A DNA stretch of 49,207 nt, taken from assembly GCA_030613065.1 (NCBI GenBank), contig JAUWMQ010000005.1, positions 1-49,207 of the forward strand, read 5' to 3'. The notes under the pieces were generated by a model. The model did not search any database and was not told the DNA's origin. It saw only the letters and a list, made by a program, of their open reading frames with translations. Each line of letters opens with the position of its first letter. The stretch's first letter is position 1. This document shows positions 20,171 to 49,207 of the stretch, piece by piece. Both the position numbers and the translations under genes were made by a program. This stretch comes from Candidatus Aegiribacteria sp. Its GTDB lineage: Bacteria; Fermentibacterota; Fermentibacteria; Fermentibacterales; JCC-6.

Positions 20171-23158
20171 TTATTCATCCAGCGCTTTTCTGACAATTCT
20201 TGCCAGATCTTTTCTGGAGAACGGCTTCTGAATGAACAAAACCCCTTCGTTCAGGACTCCGTGATGGGCGACGACATTGGCTGTATATCCAGACATGAAT
20301 ATGTACTTGATGTCCGGATAAATGGATTGGAACCTTTCTGCCAGTTCATGCCCATTCATTTCGGGCATGATCACATCGGTGATGAGCAGGTTAATCTCGC
20401 CGGCGTGTTCCTCAGCCAGGCCGATGGCCTCGGCTGGTGTGCCCGCTGTCAACACGGCGTAGCCCAGCCCGCCAAGGATTTTTTGGACGAGGTTCAGGAT
20501 CGAACGGTCATCCTCCACCAGCAGGACCATCTCACCGCGACCTTGCTGGATTTCCGCTGCGCTTGTCTCCCTGATCTCGACAGCTTTGCCCTCATGCCGG
20601 GCCAAGTATATCTTGAAGGTCGTTCCTTTACCCGGTTCGCTGTAGACATTGATGAACCCGTTGTTCTGCTTGACAATGCCGTAGATCGTTGCAAGCCCCA
20701 GGCCGGTGCCCTTATTCACATCCTTTGTAGTGAAAAACGGCTCGAAAATACTGTCCAGAATTTCCTTTTCCATGCCGCAGCCGTTGTCGCTCACGGCCAG
20801 TAGGACAAACTCACCGGGAACAAAACCGGCGTGATCGGCGCAGTAGGCCGCGTCGAAAGATGTGTTTCTCGTTTCGATAGTAACCTTGCCCACACCATCG
20901 ATGGCGTCCCGGGCGTTGACGCACAGGTTGGCCAGGATCTGGTCGAGCTGGGAGGGGTCTATTTTGACAGGCCATAGGTATGTCGCCGGCAACCAGGCAA
21001 GATTGATGTCCTCGCCGATGAGCTGACTGAGCATTTTAAGCATGCTCTCCACATTTTTGTTCAGCTCAATCACCCTGGGTGCGATGGTCTGCTTCCGGGC
21101 AAAGGCCAGCAGATGCCGGGTAATGTCAGCCGCACGTTTTGCGGCATTGAGGATTTCATCGAGATCTGCACGCAGCGGCCCGGTTGCGCCCACCTCATCC
21201 ATCGCCAGTTCAGTGAAGCCGATAATCACGCTGAGCGCATTGTTGTAATCATGTGCCACCCCGCCTGCCAGGCGCCCCACGGATTCCAATTTCTGGGCCT
21301 GACGAAGTTGGTCTTCAATTGAAGCCTTTTCTGCCTTAAGTTTTTTTTGAATTGTAATATCTTTGTCAAAACCGCGATACCCTATCATTTCTCCGTCGGC
21401 ATTAAGAATCGGAACAGCGTTTGTAAGAAGACAAACTTTGGTTCCATCTTTAGCAAGGTTCCAGTTTTCCAGATCAACAATCGGTTCTGAATTTGAAACG
21501 ATTTTGACGAATCTATCTTTGATTGTAGCCGCTTCTTCCTCTGGCATAAACTCAAATGGTGTTCTTCCTAACATCTCTTTTGCTGTATACTTAAGAACAT
21601 ATTCTACTGAATCGGAAATATATGTGTAAGTGCCGTTTATATCCACTTCCCAAATCCAATTCGCCATACTATGGGCAATATCCCGAAAGCGTCGTTCACT
21701 CTCCAACAGCTGCTCCTCTGCCAGCTTACGCTCGGTGATGTCCTCCACCGTCTCGTGGACAAAGATAGTTTTTCCATCAGGATCGATGAGCGGCGCTGCG
21801 GTGACGAACAGGGTCCGCATCCCCTGTTGCATGTTGGCTTCCCTTTCGAATGAATGCACCTGACCGTCCTGGAAAGCCATAATCACGGGACATCCCTCGC
21901 ACGGTTCCGTTCTGGGAGGAAGATTGAAAGCGCCATAACAGGGCAGATCCTTTCCGGAGTCGTCTTGGGGAAACCATTTGCGCGTGGTGGAATTGGACGC
22001 CAGAATTTCCATGTCCGGGCCGATGATCGAACCCCCCATCGGCAGGCTGTCGATAAGCACACGGAATTTCTCCTCGCTTTGCCGCAGGGAATCGGTCATC
22101 TCTCGCGCCAGTGAAATCGCACGGCTATGTGTGTTTTCCTGGCCCTGGATGAAAAGGAAGACTAACAGGCTGATGACAATCCCGGCGGCGAGGATAATCC
22201 AGGAAGCGAATTGATCAATGGTAGCCTCGAAAGACGGGCTGGACTCAAAGGACAGGGTCCATTGATGACCGCAAAGATCAAGCGTCTGTCGGCTGGAAAA
22301 CATGTGCTTGTGGTTCTCATCCGGGGCGATGGAATGTTCATTAAATTCATACATCAATCCTGCCGAAGAGACTGTAGTTCCATCGTAAATTTCAAATTCA
22401 ACATCATGCATGAGGTCCGGAAAGATTCCTTGCATGAGAGCGTCCATACGGAACGGGCTGTATACAAATCCGATGAGGGCCGCTCTCCTCTCTTGGGCGG
22501 TATTTAAGGACAAGCCCTTCGCGTAGATAGGGACATACAGCAGGAATCCCGCCTGAACCTGTTCGTCGATCTCCTGGACCAGCACAACCTTACCCGAAAG
22601 CGAGACCTCGCCGGTATCCCGCGCCCGCTCCATGGCGGCCCGCCGCATCGGCTCGGAAAACATGTCGTAGCCGAAAGAGTGCTGATTGCGCACGTTAAAA
22701 GGTTCCAGCAAGATGATGGCCGTGTACACGTCGCGTTCACCTTCGGGCCAGACCGTATAGTCGGAAAATCCCTCCGCCCTGATCCCTTGAATATGACGCT
22801 CAAGTTCCGACGGCTGGACGACTCTGGAATATCCGATGCCCTGGACGCCGGGGAAAAAGGTTTGGACTTCCCTGTATTCATAATATATCCGCCATTCATT
22901 CCGGGTCACGTCTTCGGAAACTGCAAAGAGCCCTGAAAATCCCTGAAGGGCAATCGCGTAATCATGAAATCGATGGGTGATATTCGAGGTAATCATTAAG
23001 GTCTTTTCGTCGAATCTGAGCCGTGCTTTTTCCATCTCCCGGTTGCTCCAAAACAGCCAGACAGAGATGGCAAGGGAAAGCGAAAGCGCCAGCACAACAT
23101 AGGGAAGGAGCTTTCTGAGCTTAATCGATTCGTGTATTTGGTGGAGAGATTCCTTCAT
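20171..23158 (-). CDS. Hybrid sensor histidine kinase (CHASE-PAS-PAS-HisKA-HATPase-REC)
   Basis: Two TM helices around a CHASE domain ([21 protein letters not shown]); two PAS/PAC domains; H-box [12 protein letters not shown]-box [21 protein letters not shown]; receiver LITDVIMP...QKPF. Confidence 0.93.
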
Positions 23159-36025: not shown

Positions 36026-36385
36026 TTTCTCCCCCTCTTAATTGCAAACTTGCAAGTTCTGGATGCACTTGAACAGTGCGAACGCCATTGCTTTATCTTA
36101 CAATACGAATTACAGTGAGTTAAAGTATTCGCTGAATATTAATATTATGCTTCTTCACATTAAATCCTTCTGAAGACCTCTACACCAAACGCTTCAAATC
36201 AGCAGACTGTGAATACATAGTTATCTGATTCTGGATTACAGTTCTACTGAATTTAGTATGTTCGCTATTCAACGCGTTCGAATCCAAATACTCGCTTATT
36301 CTACCTGATCATACATCCAAGAAGCATCAAATTTAAGCTTGGAGTAATCCTGCGAACAAAGGCAACATATTAAATATAACAATTT

Positions 36386-45631: not shown

Positions 45632-46215
45632 TCTTCAAAGAGACTTCACTGCTTATCCTTGCGGGTGGAGCATCCAGCCGTATGGGTTGTCCGAAGCATC
45701 TTCTACCGGTTTTCGGCGGGACGATGATGGATAGCATAATAAACCGTCTCGGAGGGATGTTCGCAGAAACCATTGTTGCCGGCAGGGGTATTGAACTTAA
45801 TCACAGAGACGCAAGGATCGTGGAGGATATCAGGCCTGAGCAAAGTCCATTGGTCGGGATACTATCGGGTTTGAAGGCATCGAGTACGTCAAATGTATTC
45901 GTGCTGGGGTGTGATATGCCTTTCGTTAAGCCCGGTTTAATACACCTTCTTACCTCCAGAAAAGATGATACAAGTGATGTAGTAATTCCTGTCATAAGGG
46001 GGTATTTTGAGCCTCTTTGCGCGATTTACAGCTGCAGGACTTCAGATAGAATCGCGCAGTACATTGATTCGGGAGGTAGAAAAGTAACAGGTTTTTTTCA
46101 GACTGTGAACGTAGCGGAAGTCCGGGAATCCGAGATCAGATTATTCGACCCTCTTCTCAAATCGTTTACTAACCTTAATACACCCAACGACTATCGCAAT
46201 TACTATCTTTCATAG
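45628..46215 (+). CDS. mobA: Molybdenum cofactor guanylyltransferase
   Basis: ILAGG.SSRMG.PK, PLVGI, CDMPF, EPLCAIY, NLNTP.D; ATGA overlap with fdhD. Confidence 0.9.
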   Translation: MIFKETSLLILAGGASSRMGCPKHLLPVFGGTMMDSIINRLGGMFAETIVAGRGIELNHRDARIVEDIRPEQSPLVGILSGLKASSTSNVFVLGCDMPFVKPGLIHLLTSRKDDTSDVVIPVIRGYFEPLCAIYSCRTSDRIAQYIDSGGRKVTGFFQTVNVAEVRESEIRLFDPLLKSFTNLNTPNDYRNYYLS

Positions 46216-46625
46216 TTCCCGAAAGAACCCTCTCAAGCATTAATGTCATGAACTTCAGACCCAGGAGGCAGCATTTCGTATTCTATTTCCTGTGCTTCAT
46301 GCACTTCTCAATATCCCTGTAGTAATTCGCGTGTGGGCCGATCATGATTAATTCAAGAGTATCGGCATCCTTCCCTTATCAGGCGGCTGGTTCATACAGT
46401 TATTCTAGACTTCATTGCATTCAATAATTCATTGCTTCGTACTTAAGAATTACAATAGCGTGAAGTGACAGGTAGCACAAGACATCAGTATCAGGTTTAT
46501 CTGTACCATTTTGCCCGAATTAATTCGTACCAGCCTGTTGTCGTCAGGATTGTTGTATACCGGGGGATTGAGCGATTGCTTCGATGACTTTCAGAATTCT
46601 CTTTTCACCCTTCAGATTTACTGGA

Positions 46626-46654
46626 TTGACGTATGACGTAATGCGTAATAGTAT
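46626..46654 (+). promoter_or_regulatory. higB promoter with a palindromic operator
   Basis: TTGACG (46626-31)-N17-TAGTAT (46649-54); imperfect palindrome TATGACGTAATGCGTAATA in the spacer; ATG 6 nt later with no RBS. Confidence 0.6.
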
Positions 46655-46660
46655 TCTATA

Positions 46661-46853
46661 ATGATTAAATCATTCAAGTGCAGGGACACGAAAAAGCTTT
46701 TCAACGATATTGATGTTCCCAAATTCAGGAGTATCAATAGGGCTGCAAGAATAAAACTTGAAGTCTTGCATGCGACCGTTTCTCTTCAAAGCCTGCGAGT
46801 TTCATCGGGAAACAGACTTGAGCAATTGCAAGGTAAGAGGAAAAGGCAGCATA
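46661..46853 (+). pseudogene. higB: HigB (RelE/ParE-family) toxin, 5' part, interrupted by a mobile element
   Basis: MIKSFKC.DT.KLF...KL..L...L..LR...GNRLE.L.G.RK.QH; similarity stops where SIRIN..WRICF is expected. Confidence 0.78.
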
Positions 46854-47146
46854 ACGAGTTAAGGATTCGTAGCGCACGTGTGCGCTGCAATTCTGTGTTG
46901 AATTAAGCGGTGCGTCTATTTGGATTTTCTATTCGTGGCGTATGGTGATCATAGTCTCTTGAAAACAGTCAAAAACAGTAAAGTATCCGGTCGGACTTGT
47001 GGAGTTCAGGCCGGTTCTCTTGTATTTCCGGGTAGCATCGGTCATCAGGATTGATGGCTCAGAGATTTTGGGTAGACCGGTTCCTGGCCGCTTCATTGTG
47101 GTTTTCAGCGGCATATACCATGTGGGATAGTACAATCTCTCTTCTC

Positions 47147-48208
47147 TCACGGTGGTGCCCTCATCCGTTGCAGCGCGAGAACATGTATGAGCTCCGTACC
47201 ACAATACAGGCAGTTAAGTATTCGCGGTCTCTCAACCAGAAGCAGAACAGGTGGCAGCCCCAGTTGTTCGCGAAGAGCATTCAGTTTTTCCGTACATCGT
47301 TGATGGAGGAATCCGTAGTATCGTACTTTGCAGAAGCCTTTCGGCAGCACATGCTGAAGGAAGCGAGCCATGAACACAAGGACAGGAAGTGTCATCGGCT
47401 TCCAGTCCTTTGTACCAACCGGCTGGTATCGGAACGTGACTTCATTATTTTGGAGAGAGAGAATGCGGCTGTTCGTTATTGCCACACGATAGATATAGCG
47501 TGAGAGATAGCGAATTACTTCAGGTCCCTTTCCCACAGGTTCACAGTGTACAACCCAGTTCTTTTTCCAGACTCCTGCCGGAACAGAGTCATAAAGCCCG
47601 AGAGCTTTTACTCCATCGCGGAATTTACCACGGTAGATGGGTGAGAGTGCCCTGACGGGCAGGAAGAAGTCTTCATAAGGAGTTCTAACCCATTTTCCGC
47701 TCTCATTGATACCGCCACCGGGAACCAGGTAATGAACATGTGTATGATATGAGATATCACGACCCCATGTATGCAGAACGCCGAACATGCCGGGCTGCGC
47801 TCCGAGATGACGGGGATCAGCCGCAAGCTTCTTTAGAGCGTTTGATGAGGCTCGGAACAACAGCCCGTAACAATCCTTCTGATTACTCCTGACGACTTTG
47901 TTCAGCTCATGTGGTAAGGTGAAGGTTATCAGGAAGCACTGGACTTCGGGAATACGAGCTGACTGTTTTTCCACCCACCGTGTCGCATCATCGTTACCGC
48001 ACTTCGGACAGTGTCGGTTACCGCATGAATGGTAGCTGTACTTCTTCTTCCCGCAGGAGGGGCAGCTGTAGAGATTGCCGCCGAGCGCGGGAGTACGGCA
48101 CGCGATGATATCATCTATTGCTCTTCTGTGACTCGGTAGAACCTTATCACCGAACTTTCTGAGATATTCACCCCTGTACTGGCGGAAGATATCCGCCATC
48201 TCGATCAT
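47147..48208 (-). CDS. IS91-family (Y2 HUH) transposase with an N-terminal Zn-binding domain
   Basis: CRT..LGG, CPSC, SCGNRHCPKC, TFTLP, LHTWG, HTHVH (HUH), YLSRY (YxxxY), QHVLP.GF..VRYYG. Confidence 0.93.
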   Translation of the reverse strand: MIEMADIFRQYRGEYLRKFGDKVLPSHRRAIDDIIACRTPALGGNLYSCPSCGKKKYSYHSCGNRHCPKCGNDDATRWVEKQSARIPEVQCFLITFTLPHELNKVVRSNQKDCYGLLFRASSNALKKLAADPRHLGAQPGMFGVLHTWGRDISYHTHVHYLVPGGGINESGKWVRTPYEDFFLPVRALSPIYRGKFRDGVKALGLYDSVPAGVWKKNWVVHCEPVGKGPEVIRYLSRYIYRVAITNSRILSLQNNEVTFRYQPVGTKDWKPMTLPVLVFMARFLQHVLPKGFCKVRYYGFLHQRCTEKLNALREQLGLPPVLLLVERPRILNCLYCGTELIHVLALQRMRAPP

Positions 48209-48219
48209 TGTTCGTCAGA

Positions 48220-49101
48220 TCAGGGAAGTTCATTCATGATTTCATCCAGATTTACTCTGGCTTTTTCTTGAGCAATACCAGTCAGATGCGTGTAAATAGC
48301 TGTAGTTGCCGGGCTGTTGTGACCGAGATTTGTCTGGATTTGTCGCAGGTTAACACCAGCTTCAAGTAAGTGAGTTGCATAGCTGTGGCGCAGCGAATGC
48401 ACCTGTGCCTTTTTACGGATACCACTGGCAAGAAGGGCTTCTTTGAAGGCCATCTGAATAACTGCTATTGAAAATGGCTCATTGATCGGATTGGTTTTGT
48501 TGTAGCTGCCGTGACAGCCCCGGCCAACTCTGGGAAACAGCCATTCCTCATTTCGGTGAATCAACCAGAATTCCCGCAGAAGTTTGAGAGTTCGCTTGGG
48601 TAAGGGCACATAGCGATCCTTACCTCCTTTACCATTGTGTACATGAACTACCATCCGGGCACTGTCTATGTCACAAATCTGTAATCTGGTACCCTCGCCC
48701 ACACGCAATCCAAGGGAGTAGATTGTTTCAAGACACGCCCTGTAACGGAAGAATCTTACATTCTGCATTATGGTAATAACTTCGCCACGAGAAAGAACTA
48801 CCGGCAGCTTGCTCTCCCGTGCAGGCCGAATCAACCCCAGAATTGACCAATCCCGTTTCAATGTCTTTTCCCAGAAGAATTTGATACCGCATATCGCTAT
48901 CGTACAGGTAGCACGAGCCCACTTCTTTTCATTCTTCACATAGAGAAAGTACGCTCGAATCTCTTGCTCATCAATCTTGTCAGGTGATTTACCGTAGTAT
49001 TCAGCAAGCTGCCTAACCGACCGGACATATGATTCCTGTGTTCTTGGATTCAACCCAGCGAGCTGAATATCCTCGATCATTCTCTTCTGCAGTGCTGTCA
49101 T
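48220..49101 (-). CDS. Tyrosine recombinase/integrase with an N-terminal SAM-like domain
   Basis: KLPVVLS, YSLGLRVGE (R), GKGGKDR (K), HSLRHSYATH, LGH, TAIYTH (Y). Confidence 0.93.
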   Translation of the reverse strand: MTALQKRMIEDIQLAGLNPRTQESYVRSVRQLAEYYGKSPDKIDEQEIRAYFLYVKNEKKWARATCTIAICGIKFFWEKTLKRDWSILGLIRPARESKLPVVLSRGEVITIMQNVRFFRYRACLETIYSLGLRVGEGTRLQICDIDSARMVVHVHNGKGGKDRYVPLPKRTLKLLREFWLIHRNEEWLFPRVGRGCHGSYNKTNPINEPFSIAVIQMAFKEALLASGIRKKAQVHSLRHSYATHLLEAGVNLRQIQTNLGHNSPATTAIYTHLTGIAQEKARVNLDEIMNELP

Positions 49102-49207
49102 GACATTCTCCCTATTTTACGGGAGTACTTGATTGCACTCCCTAGAGGAAGTATGCTACAAAGGATGTATGTTGTTTTTATCTGCGCGGTACGCGCTTAG
49201 TTCAACA

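Follow-up and report, generated by a model that had tools for sequence, protein, structure and literature searches.

Bacteria capture genes mainly through integrons, and few types of invader of their cassette arrays are known. At the end of the window (the whole stretch of DNA analysed here, 49,207 nucleotides, which is an entire contig), a gene for an integron-integrase-like tyrosine recombinase lies beside a gene for a rolling-circle transposase, next to a hairpin laid out like an integron attC site. Does this hairpin belong to a mobile unit or to its host, and which of the two enzymes would insert such a unit into its target? A sequence-only reading of this locus had answered that the hairpin is the folded end of the unit, that the HUH transposase makes single-stranded DNA and that the recombinase integrates it through this end. 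The AAC box, the bulged hairpin, the GTTGAAT box, the inverted repeats and a second hairpin are all found where that reading had placed them (Table 1).

A complete IS91-family copy with an IntI-like recombinase gene

From 46853/6 to 49205, the end of the window holds a single IS91-family element, complete and recently inserted, in which an IntI-like recombinase gene lies upstream of an HUH transposase gene. As proposed, the two enzymes belong to one mobile unit. The transposase scores 386.1 bits against NF033538 (cut-off 125) and contains the Pfam domains Y2_Tnp (PF04986, 1.2e-54) and Zn_Tnp_IS91 (PF14319, 4.4e-27); its translation includes HTHVH and YLSRYIY, which we take to be the catalytic motifs. 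The recombinase matches Phage_integrase and SAM_4 in Pfam, and its match to TIGR02249 (177.9 bits, in two stretches) stays below the cut-off of 265. Its best solved relative is VchIntIA (2a3v), where the alignment again falls into two stretches and the recombinase is about 30 residues shorter in between, residues 178-212 corresponding to 180-244 of the 2a3v chain; its homologue in genome G070 skips TIGR02249 model positions 181-207. The motifs GLRVGE, GKGGKDR, HSLRHS, LGH and IYTH align with IntI4 and presumably hold the catalytic residues of a tyrosine recombinase. The enzyme is of the integron-integrase-like kind, and this part of the sequence-only reading is supported. The true intI of this genome lies on another contig, C108 (340.7 bits), and no attC match in the window comes closer to the element than 10 kb, so the locus does not qualify as an integron platform.

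Table 1. Features of the element and of the interrupted gene, in window coordinates
Feature	Position	Strand	Basis or remark
higB 5' part (HigBA toxin), cut after codon 65 (..Q H N)	46661..46855	+	
GCATAAC (AAC box)	46849-46855		read from sequence
AAC common to target and element	46853..46855		junction ambiguous within these 3 bases
7-nt spacer GAGTTAA (TTAACTC in gene orientation)	46856..46862		between cut site and hairpin
tnpA-side subterminal imperfect hairpin, oriIS-type, attC-like layout	46863..46893		covariation
tnpA-side inverted repeat TTGAATTAAGCG	46898..46909		contains GTTRRRY-like box GTTGAAT (46897-46903)
Non-coding stretch downstream of tnpA	46910..47146	-	conserved among copies
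HUH (Y2) IS91-family transposase, 353 aa	47147..48208	-	profiles and motifs
Integron-integrase-like tyrosine recombinase, 293 aa, without IntI-specific insert	48220..49101	-	Pfam, TIGR02249, 2a3v
int-side subterminal palindrome GCGCG-GTA-CGCGC, terIS-type	49184..49196		
int-side inverted repeat CGCTTAGTTCAA	49194..49205		RYYYAAC-like box GTTCAAC with host C 49206
Terminal contig bases CA, where host higB resumes (AAC|A..)	49206..49207	+	fits X1 allele

Across the family, int adjoins tnp in 36 of 38 loci, and every copy has a full-length tnp under the IS91 equivalog model. The sole locus with room for int that lacks it, L032, is a 5'-truncated copy and was rejected as an int-less variant. The non-coding stretch downstream of tnpA shows 74-90% BLAST identity to copies in related genomes, and a miniature derivative retains both IS ends. 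Rfam returned nothing for the ends over 46000-49207, with one sub-threshold RAGATH-28 match inside int. A metagenome scan with the 14-mer GCTTAATTCAACAC gave 115 loci, none of them element-related by BLAST, and these were discarded as chance matches.

The insertion inactivates higB

The look-alike box GCATAAC inside higB is the target of this copy, and the toxin gene is inactivated by the insertion. Residues 4-63 of the 81-aa open reading frame match positions 2-63 of the 91-position Pfam HigB-like profile at 25.3 bits, below the 27-bit cut-off, and the interrupted protein is 71% identical to the intact HigB of locus L011. The similarity breaks at the AAC, as noted previously. On a contig of sequencing run X1 an uninterrupted higB continues from 46855 with ATAAGAATTAACAGTCAATTGCGAATCTGC, which reads as the remaining HigB that had been expected beyond the insertion point. 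The empty allele is GCATAAC|ATAAGAATT; because this uninterrupted gene is available, the insertion point is fixed at GCATAAC|ATAAG, with no target duplication. Element unitigs of the same run cover 46853-49205; in the window the occupied ends read CATAAC|GAG and GTTCAAC|A.

The contig stops 2 bases past the element, and the second flank is therefore unreadable from it; among the contigs of the same genome, an incomplete MAG, none holds the remaining higB and higA. In tblastn, HigB aligned 11 residues beyond the junction into element sequence, with 5 identities; this was rejected as evidence for a host hairpin, and we treat the overrun as chance or as a resemblance between target and element end (ATAAGAATT versus TTAAGGATT).

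Both folded ends belong to the element

The 5' arm of the tnpA-side hairpin, GGATT-C-GTAGCGCAC (46863-46877), and its 3' arm, GTGCGCTGCAATTC (46880-46893), form 14 pairs, including two G.T, with a single unpaired C at 46868; TGT follows, and then the GTTGAAT box. Among 24 distinct copies, 94.2% of the hairpin cells are paired and 5 of the 14 pairs are changed on both sides (20 cells). None of 500 shuffles matches the observed percentage paired or the covariation score, and alignments in slid registers reach only 23-54% pairing; the hairpin is more than chance. It is found in copies from three bacterial groups, and the spacer that separates it from the cut site is conserved as TTAnnTC in the 24 aligned copies.

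Because the 24 distinct copies keep this structure with compensatory changes, the hairpin at 46863..46893 is the element's own tnpA-side end and not host DNA, which upholds, together with the X1 allele, the earlier assignment of the folded 55-bp end to the unit. The competing idea, that it is host DNA, namely the attC of a higBA cassette, draws on the + strand order of GCATAAC, hairpin and GTTGAAT downstream of higB and on the existence of higBA as a cassette in L011. It is refuted, with practically no probability left to it: higB is cut at codon 65, the empty allele continues there as coding sequence with no hairpin, and the same hairpin follows the transposase in the 24 distinct copies with unrelated flanks. 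The conserved boundary of the unit is the AAC box and not G|TTGAAT, and the first four bases of GCATAAC are host DNA, as the empty allele shows. That other copies might end at the repeat without the hairpin, a possibility raised at the outset, is contradicted by the 24 distinct copies; the one exception is contig C41 of this genome, whose degenerate copy breaks exactly at G|TTGAAT.

On the int side, the palindrome begins at an identical offset in 22 of 23 distinct ends with differing stem sequences, such as GCGCTGC/GCAGCGC and GCTCTGCG/CGCAGAGC. The two inverted repeats are complementary at 11 of 12 positions, and these same 11-12 bp are retained in relatives with transposases only 46-57% identical. 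TTGAAC directly opens the element in 23 distinct int-side ends for which some flanking sequence exists, and AAC and TTGAAC are the two points at which similarity to copies from other genomes ends. A mirrored hairpin beyond 49207, predicted by the sequence-only reading, is thus not expected.

The tnpA-side end has the RYYYAAC..GTTRRRY layout of an attC site, with an imperfect palindrome and an extrahelical base. In the bottom-strand attC rule AAC lies on the arm opposite the extrahelical bases (PMC5027507); here the unpaired C46868 shares an arm with the boundary AAC. The spacer from hairpin to cut measures 7 nt in the element versus 2-3 nt in host attCs. The strand with 5'-AAC folds better in 22 of 33 ends, 10 of which are identical copies, and the asymmetry between strands is weak, about 1 kcal/mol on average; GTT follows the element end in 30 of the 33 listed ends.

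Relatives insert antisense at the inverse core of integron attC sites

We built an attC covariance model, R1, from 15 host attC sites. With filters off, its best match to the element hairpin is 6.0 bits (E 1.7, at 46849-46864), so the folded end did not prove to be an attC by this model, which finds 26 sites elsewhere in the same genome. At the insertion sites of relatives the integron link is real. R1 gives a full-length match whose first box overlaps TTGAAC at 12 of the 18 distinct int-side junctions searched, and in all 12 the attC lies on the strand opposite the element genes, i.e., the element is antisense to the cassette array. The cut falls at the AAC of the attC inverse core (R''), which the int-side box replaces, and some copies sit inside cassette arrays. 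An independent hairpin test was positive at 9 of 18 close-family flanks; of 1500 G|TT sites chosen at random, 35 passed it.

Where complete copies lie away from attC sites, in three cases, the targets are GCATAA|C, ACTTAA|C and TGCTAA|C. Agreement of the targets with the R'' consensus extends over 6-7 bases and so exceeds a tetranucleotide. The opposite attC box (GTTATGT), which offers the same tetranucleotide on the other strand, is never used. Our data show that an RYYYAAC box, cut at its AAC, is the family's insertion site; for relatives this box is mostly the R'' of a genuine integron attC, and there they are always antisense. The placement of the int-side junction at genuine host attCs is new here; the searchable literature contained no statement of this target rule (AAC of the inverse core, antisense), nor an end analysis, for elements of the ISShvi3/ISWz1 type.

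Of 70 genomes from the phylum, 38 encode a true integron integrase, this genome included. G070 harbours nine identical copies at unrelated sites and no integron integrase over the cut-off, and the element is therefore autonomous. The G070 copies occupy short motifs that lack hairpins: the hairpin test was positive at 0 of 10 flanks.

Which enzyme inserts the element

The explanation we favour, with roughly even confidence, is that this IS91-family element is both circularised and integrated by its transposase, with the recombinase as an accessory and the AAC box or attC as the target. As in IS91, the transposase would start at the tnpA-side hairpin, peel off the bottom strand (the + strand of the window) up to the int-side palindrome and release it as a single-stranded circle. 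Within the circle the 12-bp repeats could pair and, with the hairpin, would form an attC-like fold with the junction AA|C; the transposase would then cut the target AAC and join the strands. The recombinase, in the place of IS91 Orf121, may recognise repeat or R-box DNA and so either guide the element towards attC boxes or define its ends, without performing the integration chemistry. For IS91, PMC13181058 describes subterminal palindromes at oriIS and terIS beside a GTT-type tetranucleotide (the target, GTTC or CTTG, adjoins oriIS), a bottom-strand single-stranded circle as the functional intermediate, its insertion by TnpA by itself, and improved terIS termination by the upstream Orf121. Because IS91 TnpA alone inserts the circle, a division of labour between two enzymes is possible but not needed. 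The element's hairpins, which our analysis assigns to normal IS91-type ends, do not by themselves call for a recombinase; of the hybrid transposition proposed earlier, the gene pair and the integron link hold. No joint 49205>46853 is listed among the assembled contigs of the runs, from which rare forms drop out.

Several features nevertheless speak against the favoured explanation. The 12-bp terminal repeat, kept across groups with only 46-57% transposase identity, resembles a recombinase binding site, and HUH enzymes are not known to need such a repeat. The targets extend beyond the tetranucleotide, insertion at attC has one orientation (12/12) with the opposite box unused, and the spacers of 7 nt versus 2-3 nt do not both fit one hairpin-plus-distance rule. 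The recombinase is intact, remains linked to the transposase as counted above, and has an integron integrase as its closest solved relative. According to the rival, hybrid explanation, the transposase only makes the single-stranded circle and the recombinase integrates the folded junction by integron-type single-strand recombination; this junction would comprise an R stem, built from the two repeats, together with the hairpin, its partner would be an AAC box in a folded attC or in a look-alike, and the strand polarity would be the reverse of IntI's. Perfect RYYYAAC and GTTRRRY boxes lie within the repeats, which are conserved across phyla, the recombinase is of the kind closest to IntI, and it lacks the IntI insert, which lodges extrahelical bases. 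The junctions lie at the AAC triplet, the cut position of integron integrases (PMC5027507). Donor site and target attC are alike in geometry: AAC and extra bases are on the same arm in 11/11 flank hairpins and in the element's own hairpin, a "top-strand" geometry that IntI disfavours and that predicts inverted orientation (PMC5027507), as in the 12 of 12 antisense copies. An insert-less recombinase may conceivably, then, paste the HUH-made bottom-strand circle by recombining its fold with the normally silent top strand of attC. We regard the hybrid explanation as less likely than the favoured one, since circle formation would already require the transposase to cut these two bonds and IS91 transposase inserts alone, leaving the recombinase dispensable for chemistry; moreover, the nine G070 copies at hairpin-less short motifs would be unusual for a site-specific recombinase, and the element hairpin fails the host attC model.

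It is improbable that the recombinase alone moves the unit, cassette-like, between attC-like sites, with the transposase only amplifying it or riding as a passenger. Insertion does convert one host attC into two attC-like sites bracketing the genes, and the C41 copy breaks exactly at G|TTGAAT; against this, the transposase is full-length in all copies and linked to int in 36 of 38 loci, the hairpin ends and the tetranucleotide logic are those of IS91, and the miniature derivative keeps both IS ends. Even less can be said for an ordinary cassette moved by the host integron integrase, which we consider very improbable despite the frequency of such integrases in the phylum, this genome among them, and the copies within cassette arrays: G070 has its nine identical copies without an integrase over the cut-off, the unit boundaries lie at the R'' AAC, although IntI's preference against this box and strand amounts to orders of magnitude, and the hairpin goes unrecognised by the host attC model.

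Whichever enzyme inserts it, an IS91-type element whose recombinase is IntI's closest relative outside integrons homes to one base of attC in one orientation, here in a second phylum, leaves an attC-like hairpin behind, multiplies without an integron and also hits genes in which nothing but the 7-base box is present. Pasting by the recombinase, if it occurs, would be a mode of recombination with strand polarity opposite to IntI's, and would link rolling-circle transposons to the origin of integrons. The element would then be a self-mobilising "anti-cassette", a plausible relative of the integron ancestor and nature's first known case of a rolling-circle enzyme working together with single-strand tyrosine recombination.

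Comparison with known systems

Other invaders share the destination or the style of movement. The IS1111-attC group and group IIC-attC introns also home to integron attC sites, and the latter insert opposite to cassette orientation, as PMC9229058 states; their enzymes (a DEDD transposase, and a ribozyme with reverse transcriptase) and their ends are, however, unrelated. IS200/IS605 elements (HUH Y1, "peel and paste") likewise have subterminal imperfect hairpins and a short target motif, and move as single-strand circles (PMC5027513), whereas their transposase is from another family and they have no recombinase.

Integron cassettes and attC sites resemble the element in their two boxes, RYYYAAC and GTTRRRY, in an imperfect hairpin that leaves a base unpaired and in junctions at the AAC/GTT triplet; as in a cassette, the first bases of the circular form are complementary to the box before the hairpin, and the recombinase is related to IntI. 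Unlike attC, the hairpin fails the host model and has one unpaired base instead of two, with spacers of 7 and 3 nt; unlike integrons, the recombinase is below the IntI cut-off, lacks the insert and serves an element that multiplies in an integron-free genome.

With IS91, IS801 and IS1294 the element has in common the transposase family (NF033538), the absence of target duplication and a GTT-type tetranucleotide at both junctions; the subterminal palindromes at both ends follow the oriIS/terIS layout of the IS91 family, and the upstream accessory gene close to tnpA recalls orf121 of IS91. It differs from IS91 in that this gene encodes a 293-aa tyrosine recombinase, in its 12-bp terminal inverted repeats and in its target, a longer RYYYAAC-like box, mostly the attC inverse core in one orientation. 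ISfinder lists IS91-family members with an upstream integrase gene, among them ISShvi3 and ISWz1, which have the same gene pair as the present element. Published work places the recombinases of IS91 elements in an "integron-like" subgroup without the IntI insert (bioRxiv 10.1101/542381), reports ISShvi3 beside an attC in a Shewanella integron (PMC9229058), and describes ISWz1 copies with "intI" flanking a resistance region, subgroup relatives doing so in clinical Bacteroidota (PMC9751785). The present copy differs from this ISShvi3/ISWz1 type in coming from a different phylum and in lying within a gene rather than at an attC.

Insertion of the element into higB

The element at the end of the window lies inside higB, and the sequence-only reading had expected the rest of this gene beyond the contig, which is one of 159 in the genome, makes up the entire window and ends two bases past the right repeat. 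Sequencing run X1 contains 95% of the sampled words and probably represents the source community; one of its assembled contigs matches the window through 46855 and then runs on as ATAAGAATTAACAGTCAATTGCGAATCTGC, in frame ..QHN IRINSQLRIC compared with ..QHS IRINSQWRIC in the intact HigB of a related locus (L011). Since this contig reads on as HigB, an uninterrupted higB is present in that community. The target is GCATAAC/ATAAG (slashes mark junctions), without duplication; the single AAC of the empty site is found at each junction of the occupied one, which leaves the junction ambiguous by three bases, and the final two contig bases (CA) are higB resuming. Element unitigs of X1 cover 46853-49205 at a depth of 24-60, with a flank depth of 8.9; the runs were covered as assembled contigs, a form in which circles would not show. 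The end features described from the sequence (AAC box, bulged hairpin, GTTGAAT, inverted repeats, second hairpin) are all found where they had been placed (Table).

Table. Features of the element ends and genes in the window
Feature	Position	Strand	Detail
AAC box GCATAAC	46849-55		sequence read
Spacer, 7 nt	between GCATAAC and hairpin		sequence read
tnpA-side hairpin	46863-93		14 pairs including two G.T; one unpaired C at 46868
TGT, then GTTGAAT	GTTGAAT at 46897-903		sequence read
Terminal inverted repeat, tnpA side, TTGAATTAAGCG	46898-909		11/12 complementary to 49194-205
Second hairpin GCGCG-GTA-CGCGC	49184-96		sequence read
Terminal inverted repeat, int side, CGCTTAGTTCAA	49194-205		11/12 complementary to 46898-909
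IS91-family transposase (Tnp) ORF	47147-48208	-	NF033538, 386 bits (cut-off 125); Pfam Y2_Tnp and Zn_Tnp_IS91
Tyrosine recombinase (Int) ORF	48220-49101	-	11 bases upstream of transposase ORF

Translated in frame, the element end at 46856-46888 shares 5 of 11 residues with the missing HigB part (judged by HigB of L011), and the target ATAAGAATT resembles the element TTAAGGATT at the DNA level, by chance or through target preference. In L011 (1-3000), a cassette array upstream of the element copy carries a methyltransferase gene, an ORF6N-like gene and the intact higBA pair, with an attC site after each; a relative thus carries higBA itself as a cassette.

The terminal hairpin belongs to the element

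Among copies from the same genome (contig C89) and from MAGs titled Candidatus Aegiribacteria or Sabulitectum, homology extends as far as AAC at the tnpA-side end and TTGAAC at the int-side end. In an alignment of 24 distinct tnpA-side ends, 94.2% of hairpin cells are paired, falling to 23-54% in slid registers, and 5 of the 14 pairs differ in both partners (20 cells), e.g., GCGCAC/GTGCGC to GCACACG/CGTGTGC and GGATT/AATCC to GGGTT/AACCC. Neither the pairing nor the covariation score is reached by any of 500 shuffles. These compensatory changes bear out the view that the hairpin is the element's own; an origin in host DNA is refuted. Of 23 distinct int-side ends, 22 have the palindrome starting at the same offset, and its stem comes in at least five versions. 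Copies ending at the repeat without the hairpin had been named in advance as evidence against this assignment; the degenerate copy on contig C41 is one, and the 24 distinct ends retain the hairpin.

That second copy in the window's genome (C41:1-1984) is 84-87% identical, has an internal repeat or frameshift in the transposase gene and a recombinase gene cut down to its last 57 codons beside an inverted fragment, and its tnpA-side end breaks at G/TTGAAT, as it would after recombination at the canonical attC crossover. In the same genome, a hairpin-end remnant, AACGAAGTAAGGATTTGTAGCGCAC, at C94:~20200-20300 continues into unrelated sequence up to CTTCAAC, with no adjoining element. Elsewhere, a foreign 1.6-kb insertion bounded by inverted ends of its own (TTATGAGGCC..GGCCTCA) separates repeat from hairpin (L006:1426-3017, in G048:C34), and locus L002 lacks the final ~90 bases. 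In locus L247 (2831-5095, G013:C10), the last ~65 bases of an element (repeat plus hairpin) are present twice, 2.2 kb apart, enclosing toxin-antitoxin genes and an IS4-like transposase fragment; farther downstream, additional toxin-antitoxin cassettes precede a second copy of the element.

A stable gene pair that multiplies without an integron integrase

The recombinase gene adjoins the transposase gene in 36 of 38 related loci with room upstream (transposase identity 44-92%), and one of the two others, L032, is a 5'-truncated copy; the gene pair is a stable unit. The top NCBIfam model for Int is 'integron integrase', at 177.9 bits under a cut-off of 265, and among solved structures it comes closest to the Vibrio integron integrase 2a3v (E 1.4e-30). 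This match is split in two stretches with ~30 fewer residues in between, so the IntI-specific segment is missing from Int, in agreement with the 'integron-like' subgroup without the IntI insert to which a published classification assigns recombinases of IS91 elements (bioRxiv 10.1101/542381).

In the long-read MAG G070 the element is present nine times in identical form at unrelated sites, and its junctions read R/TTGAAC .. TCTT/TT(T)GTC. No integron integrase above the cut-off is found in this genome, where the only strong matches are the element's own recombinase, skipping model positions 181-207, so the element can do without host IntI. The 11-12 bp repeat and hairpin layout is kept in the G070 family and in Blastocatellia MAGs, whose transposases are 46-57% identical to that of the window.

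Relatives insert mostly at integron attC sites

Of 70 genomes of the phylum, 38 have true integron integrases (above the TIGR02249 cut-off); the window's own genome is among them (C108:624-1547, 340.7 bits, and a partial one on C9), and its integron is spread across many contigs (C108, C9, C22, C97, C106, C12, C70, C60). From arrays adjoining such genes we took 15 attC sites (90.4% of cells paired; 15 of 21 pairs changing on both sides; two unpaired bases on the 5' arm, read in array direction) and built the covariance model R1, whose E-values are rough, as it rests on 15 sites. R1 finds 26 clustered attC sites elsewhere in this genome, e.g., five on C22. A solitary site of host array type (CTAAATTCAGTAGAACTG..CAGTCTGCTGATTTGAAGC; 36.6 bits, E 3e-6) lies at window 36184-36266 (-), between two small minus-strand ORFs and far from any integrase.

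Each int-side flank of a related copy carries an imperfect palindrome of its own that stops a few bases short of TTGAAC, and these are integron attC sites: R1 gives a full-length match at 12 of 18 distinct junctions searched (one in a Blastocatellia MAG), with the first box of the match overlapping the start of the element and the match always on the strand opposite to the element genes (12/12). No R1 match is found at the other six (L230, L252, L254, L012, L016, L024). Most loci are short MAG contigs, and copies within one genome are not independent. An independent hairpin test is positive at 9 of 18 close-family and 2 of 3 Blastocatellia flanks, at none of 10 in the 'delta proteobacterium' family, and at 35 of 1500 random G/TT control sites of the window's genome; the longer arm lies on the same side in all 11 positive flanks. 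In array direction, RYYYAA of the inverse core (R'') is replaced by the element's own GTTCAA, and the bases beyond the tnpA-side end (TTATGC, TTATGT, TTAGGC and similar) are the displaced portion of the R'' box. Nearby cassette genes are mostly antisense to the element, and a true intI is found 1.1 kb from one copy. Outside attC sites there are three complete copies, with the targets GCATAA/C (window), ACTTAA/C and TGCTAA/C, all R'' box forms found in host sites. A 373-bp miniature with both ends kept and the interior deleted (L230:1501-1873, G051:C76) sits behind an attC-like hairpin, with A instead of G before TTGAAC.

Mechanism and relation to known systems

The proposed attC-like folded end holds for layout (boxes, imperfect hairpin, unpaired base, junction at the AAC/GTT triplet) but not for family membership: R1, run without filters, scores the element's own end at only 6 bits (E 1.7), the spacers are 7 and 3 nt, and one base is unpaired instead of two. 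The end is thus an attC in layout, not a family member. According to PMC5027507, IntI cleaves the bottom-strand AAC, which faces the extrahelical bases across the stem; when AAC and these bases share an arm, the geometry is that of the top strand, where recombination is less efficient by orders of magnitude and the cassette would be inverted. This top-strand geometry is seen at the element's own site as well as at its attC targets, and the element is inverted relative to cassette arrays.

According to PMC13181058, IS91 inserts without duplication beside a target tetranucleotide, GTTC or CTTG, at oriIS downstream of tnpA; oriIS has one or two imperfect subterminal palindromes, and terIS has one palindrome adjoining the cut site (GTTC in IS801 and IS1294). 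The functional intermediate is a bottom-strand single-stranded circle inserted by TnpA alone, and upstream Orf121 sharpens terIS termination. Because the element fits this plan point for point, we favor cutting and joining by Tnp as the leading reading, at about an even chance: Tnp would act on the bottom strand (window plus strand), which folds slightly better, and Int would be an accessory reading the repeats or R boxes. This reading does not account for three features, namely the conserved inverted repeats, the 6-7-base target and the strict orientation at attC, and these keep alive the hybrid proposed from the sequence, in which the HUH enzyme makes single-stranded DNA and Int integrates it through the fold, a possible but less probable route. 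Movement by Int alone is improbable beside either, and movement by host IntI very improbable, given the multiplication of copies in G070.

ISfinder lists IS91-family members with an upstream integrase. A resistance region flanked by ISWz1 with 'intI' is described in PMC9751785. Among the open-access papers searched, we found none giving a target rule, orientation or end geometry. The window adds the empty-site proof, an attC test with a host-derived model, an IntI-free genome with multiple copies and the top-strand geometry argument. Within the IS91 plan, the element has GTTG at its int side and takes GTTA as its target. As GTTC reads GAAC on the other strand, the tetranucleotide of IS91 overlaps the integron triplet.
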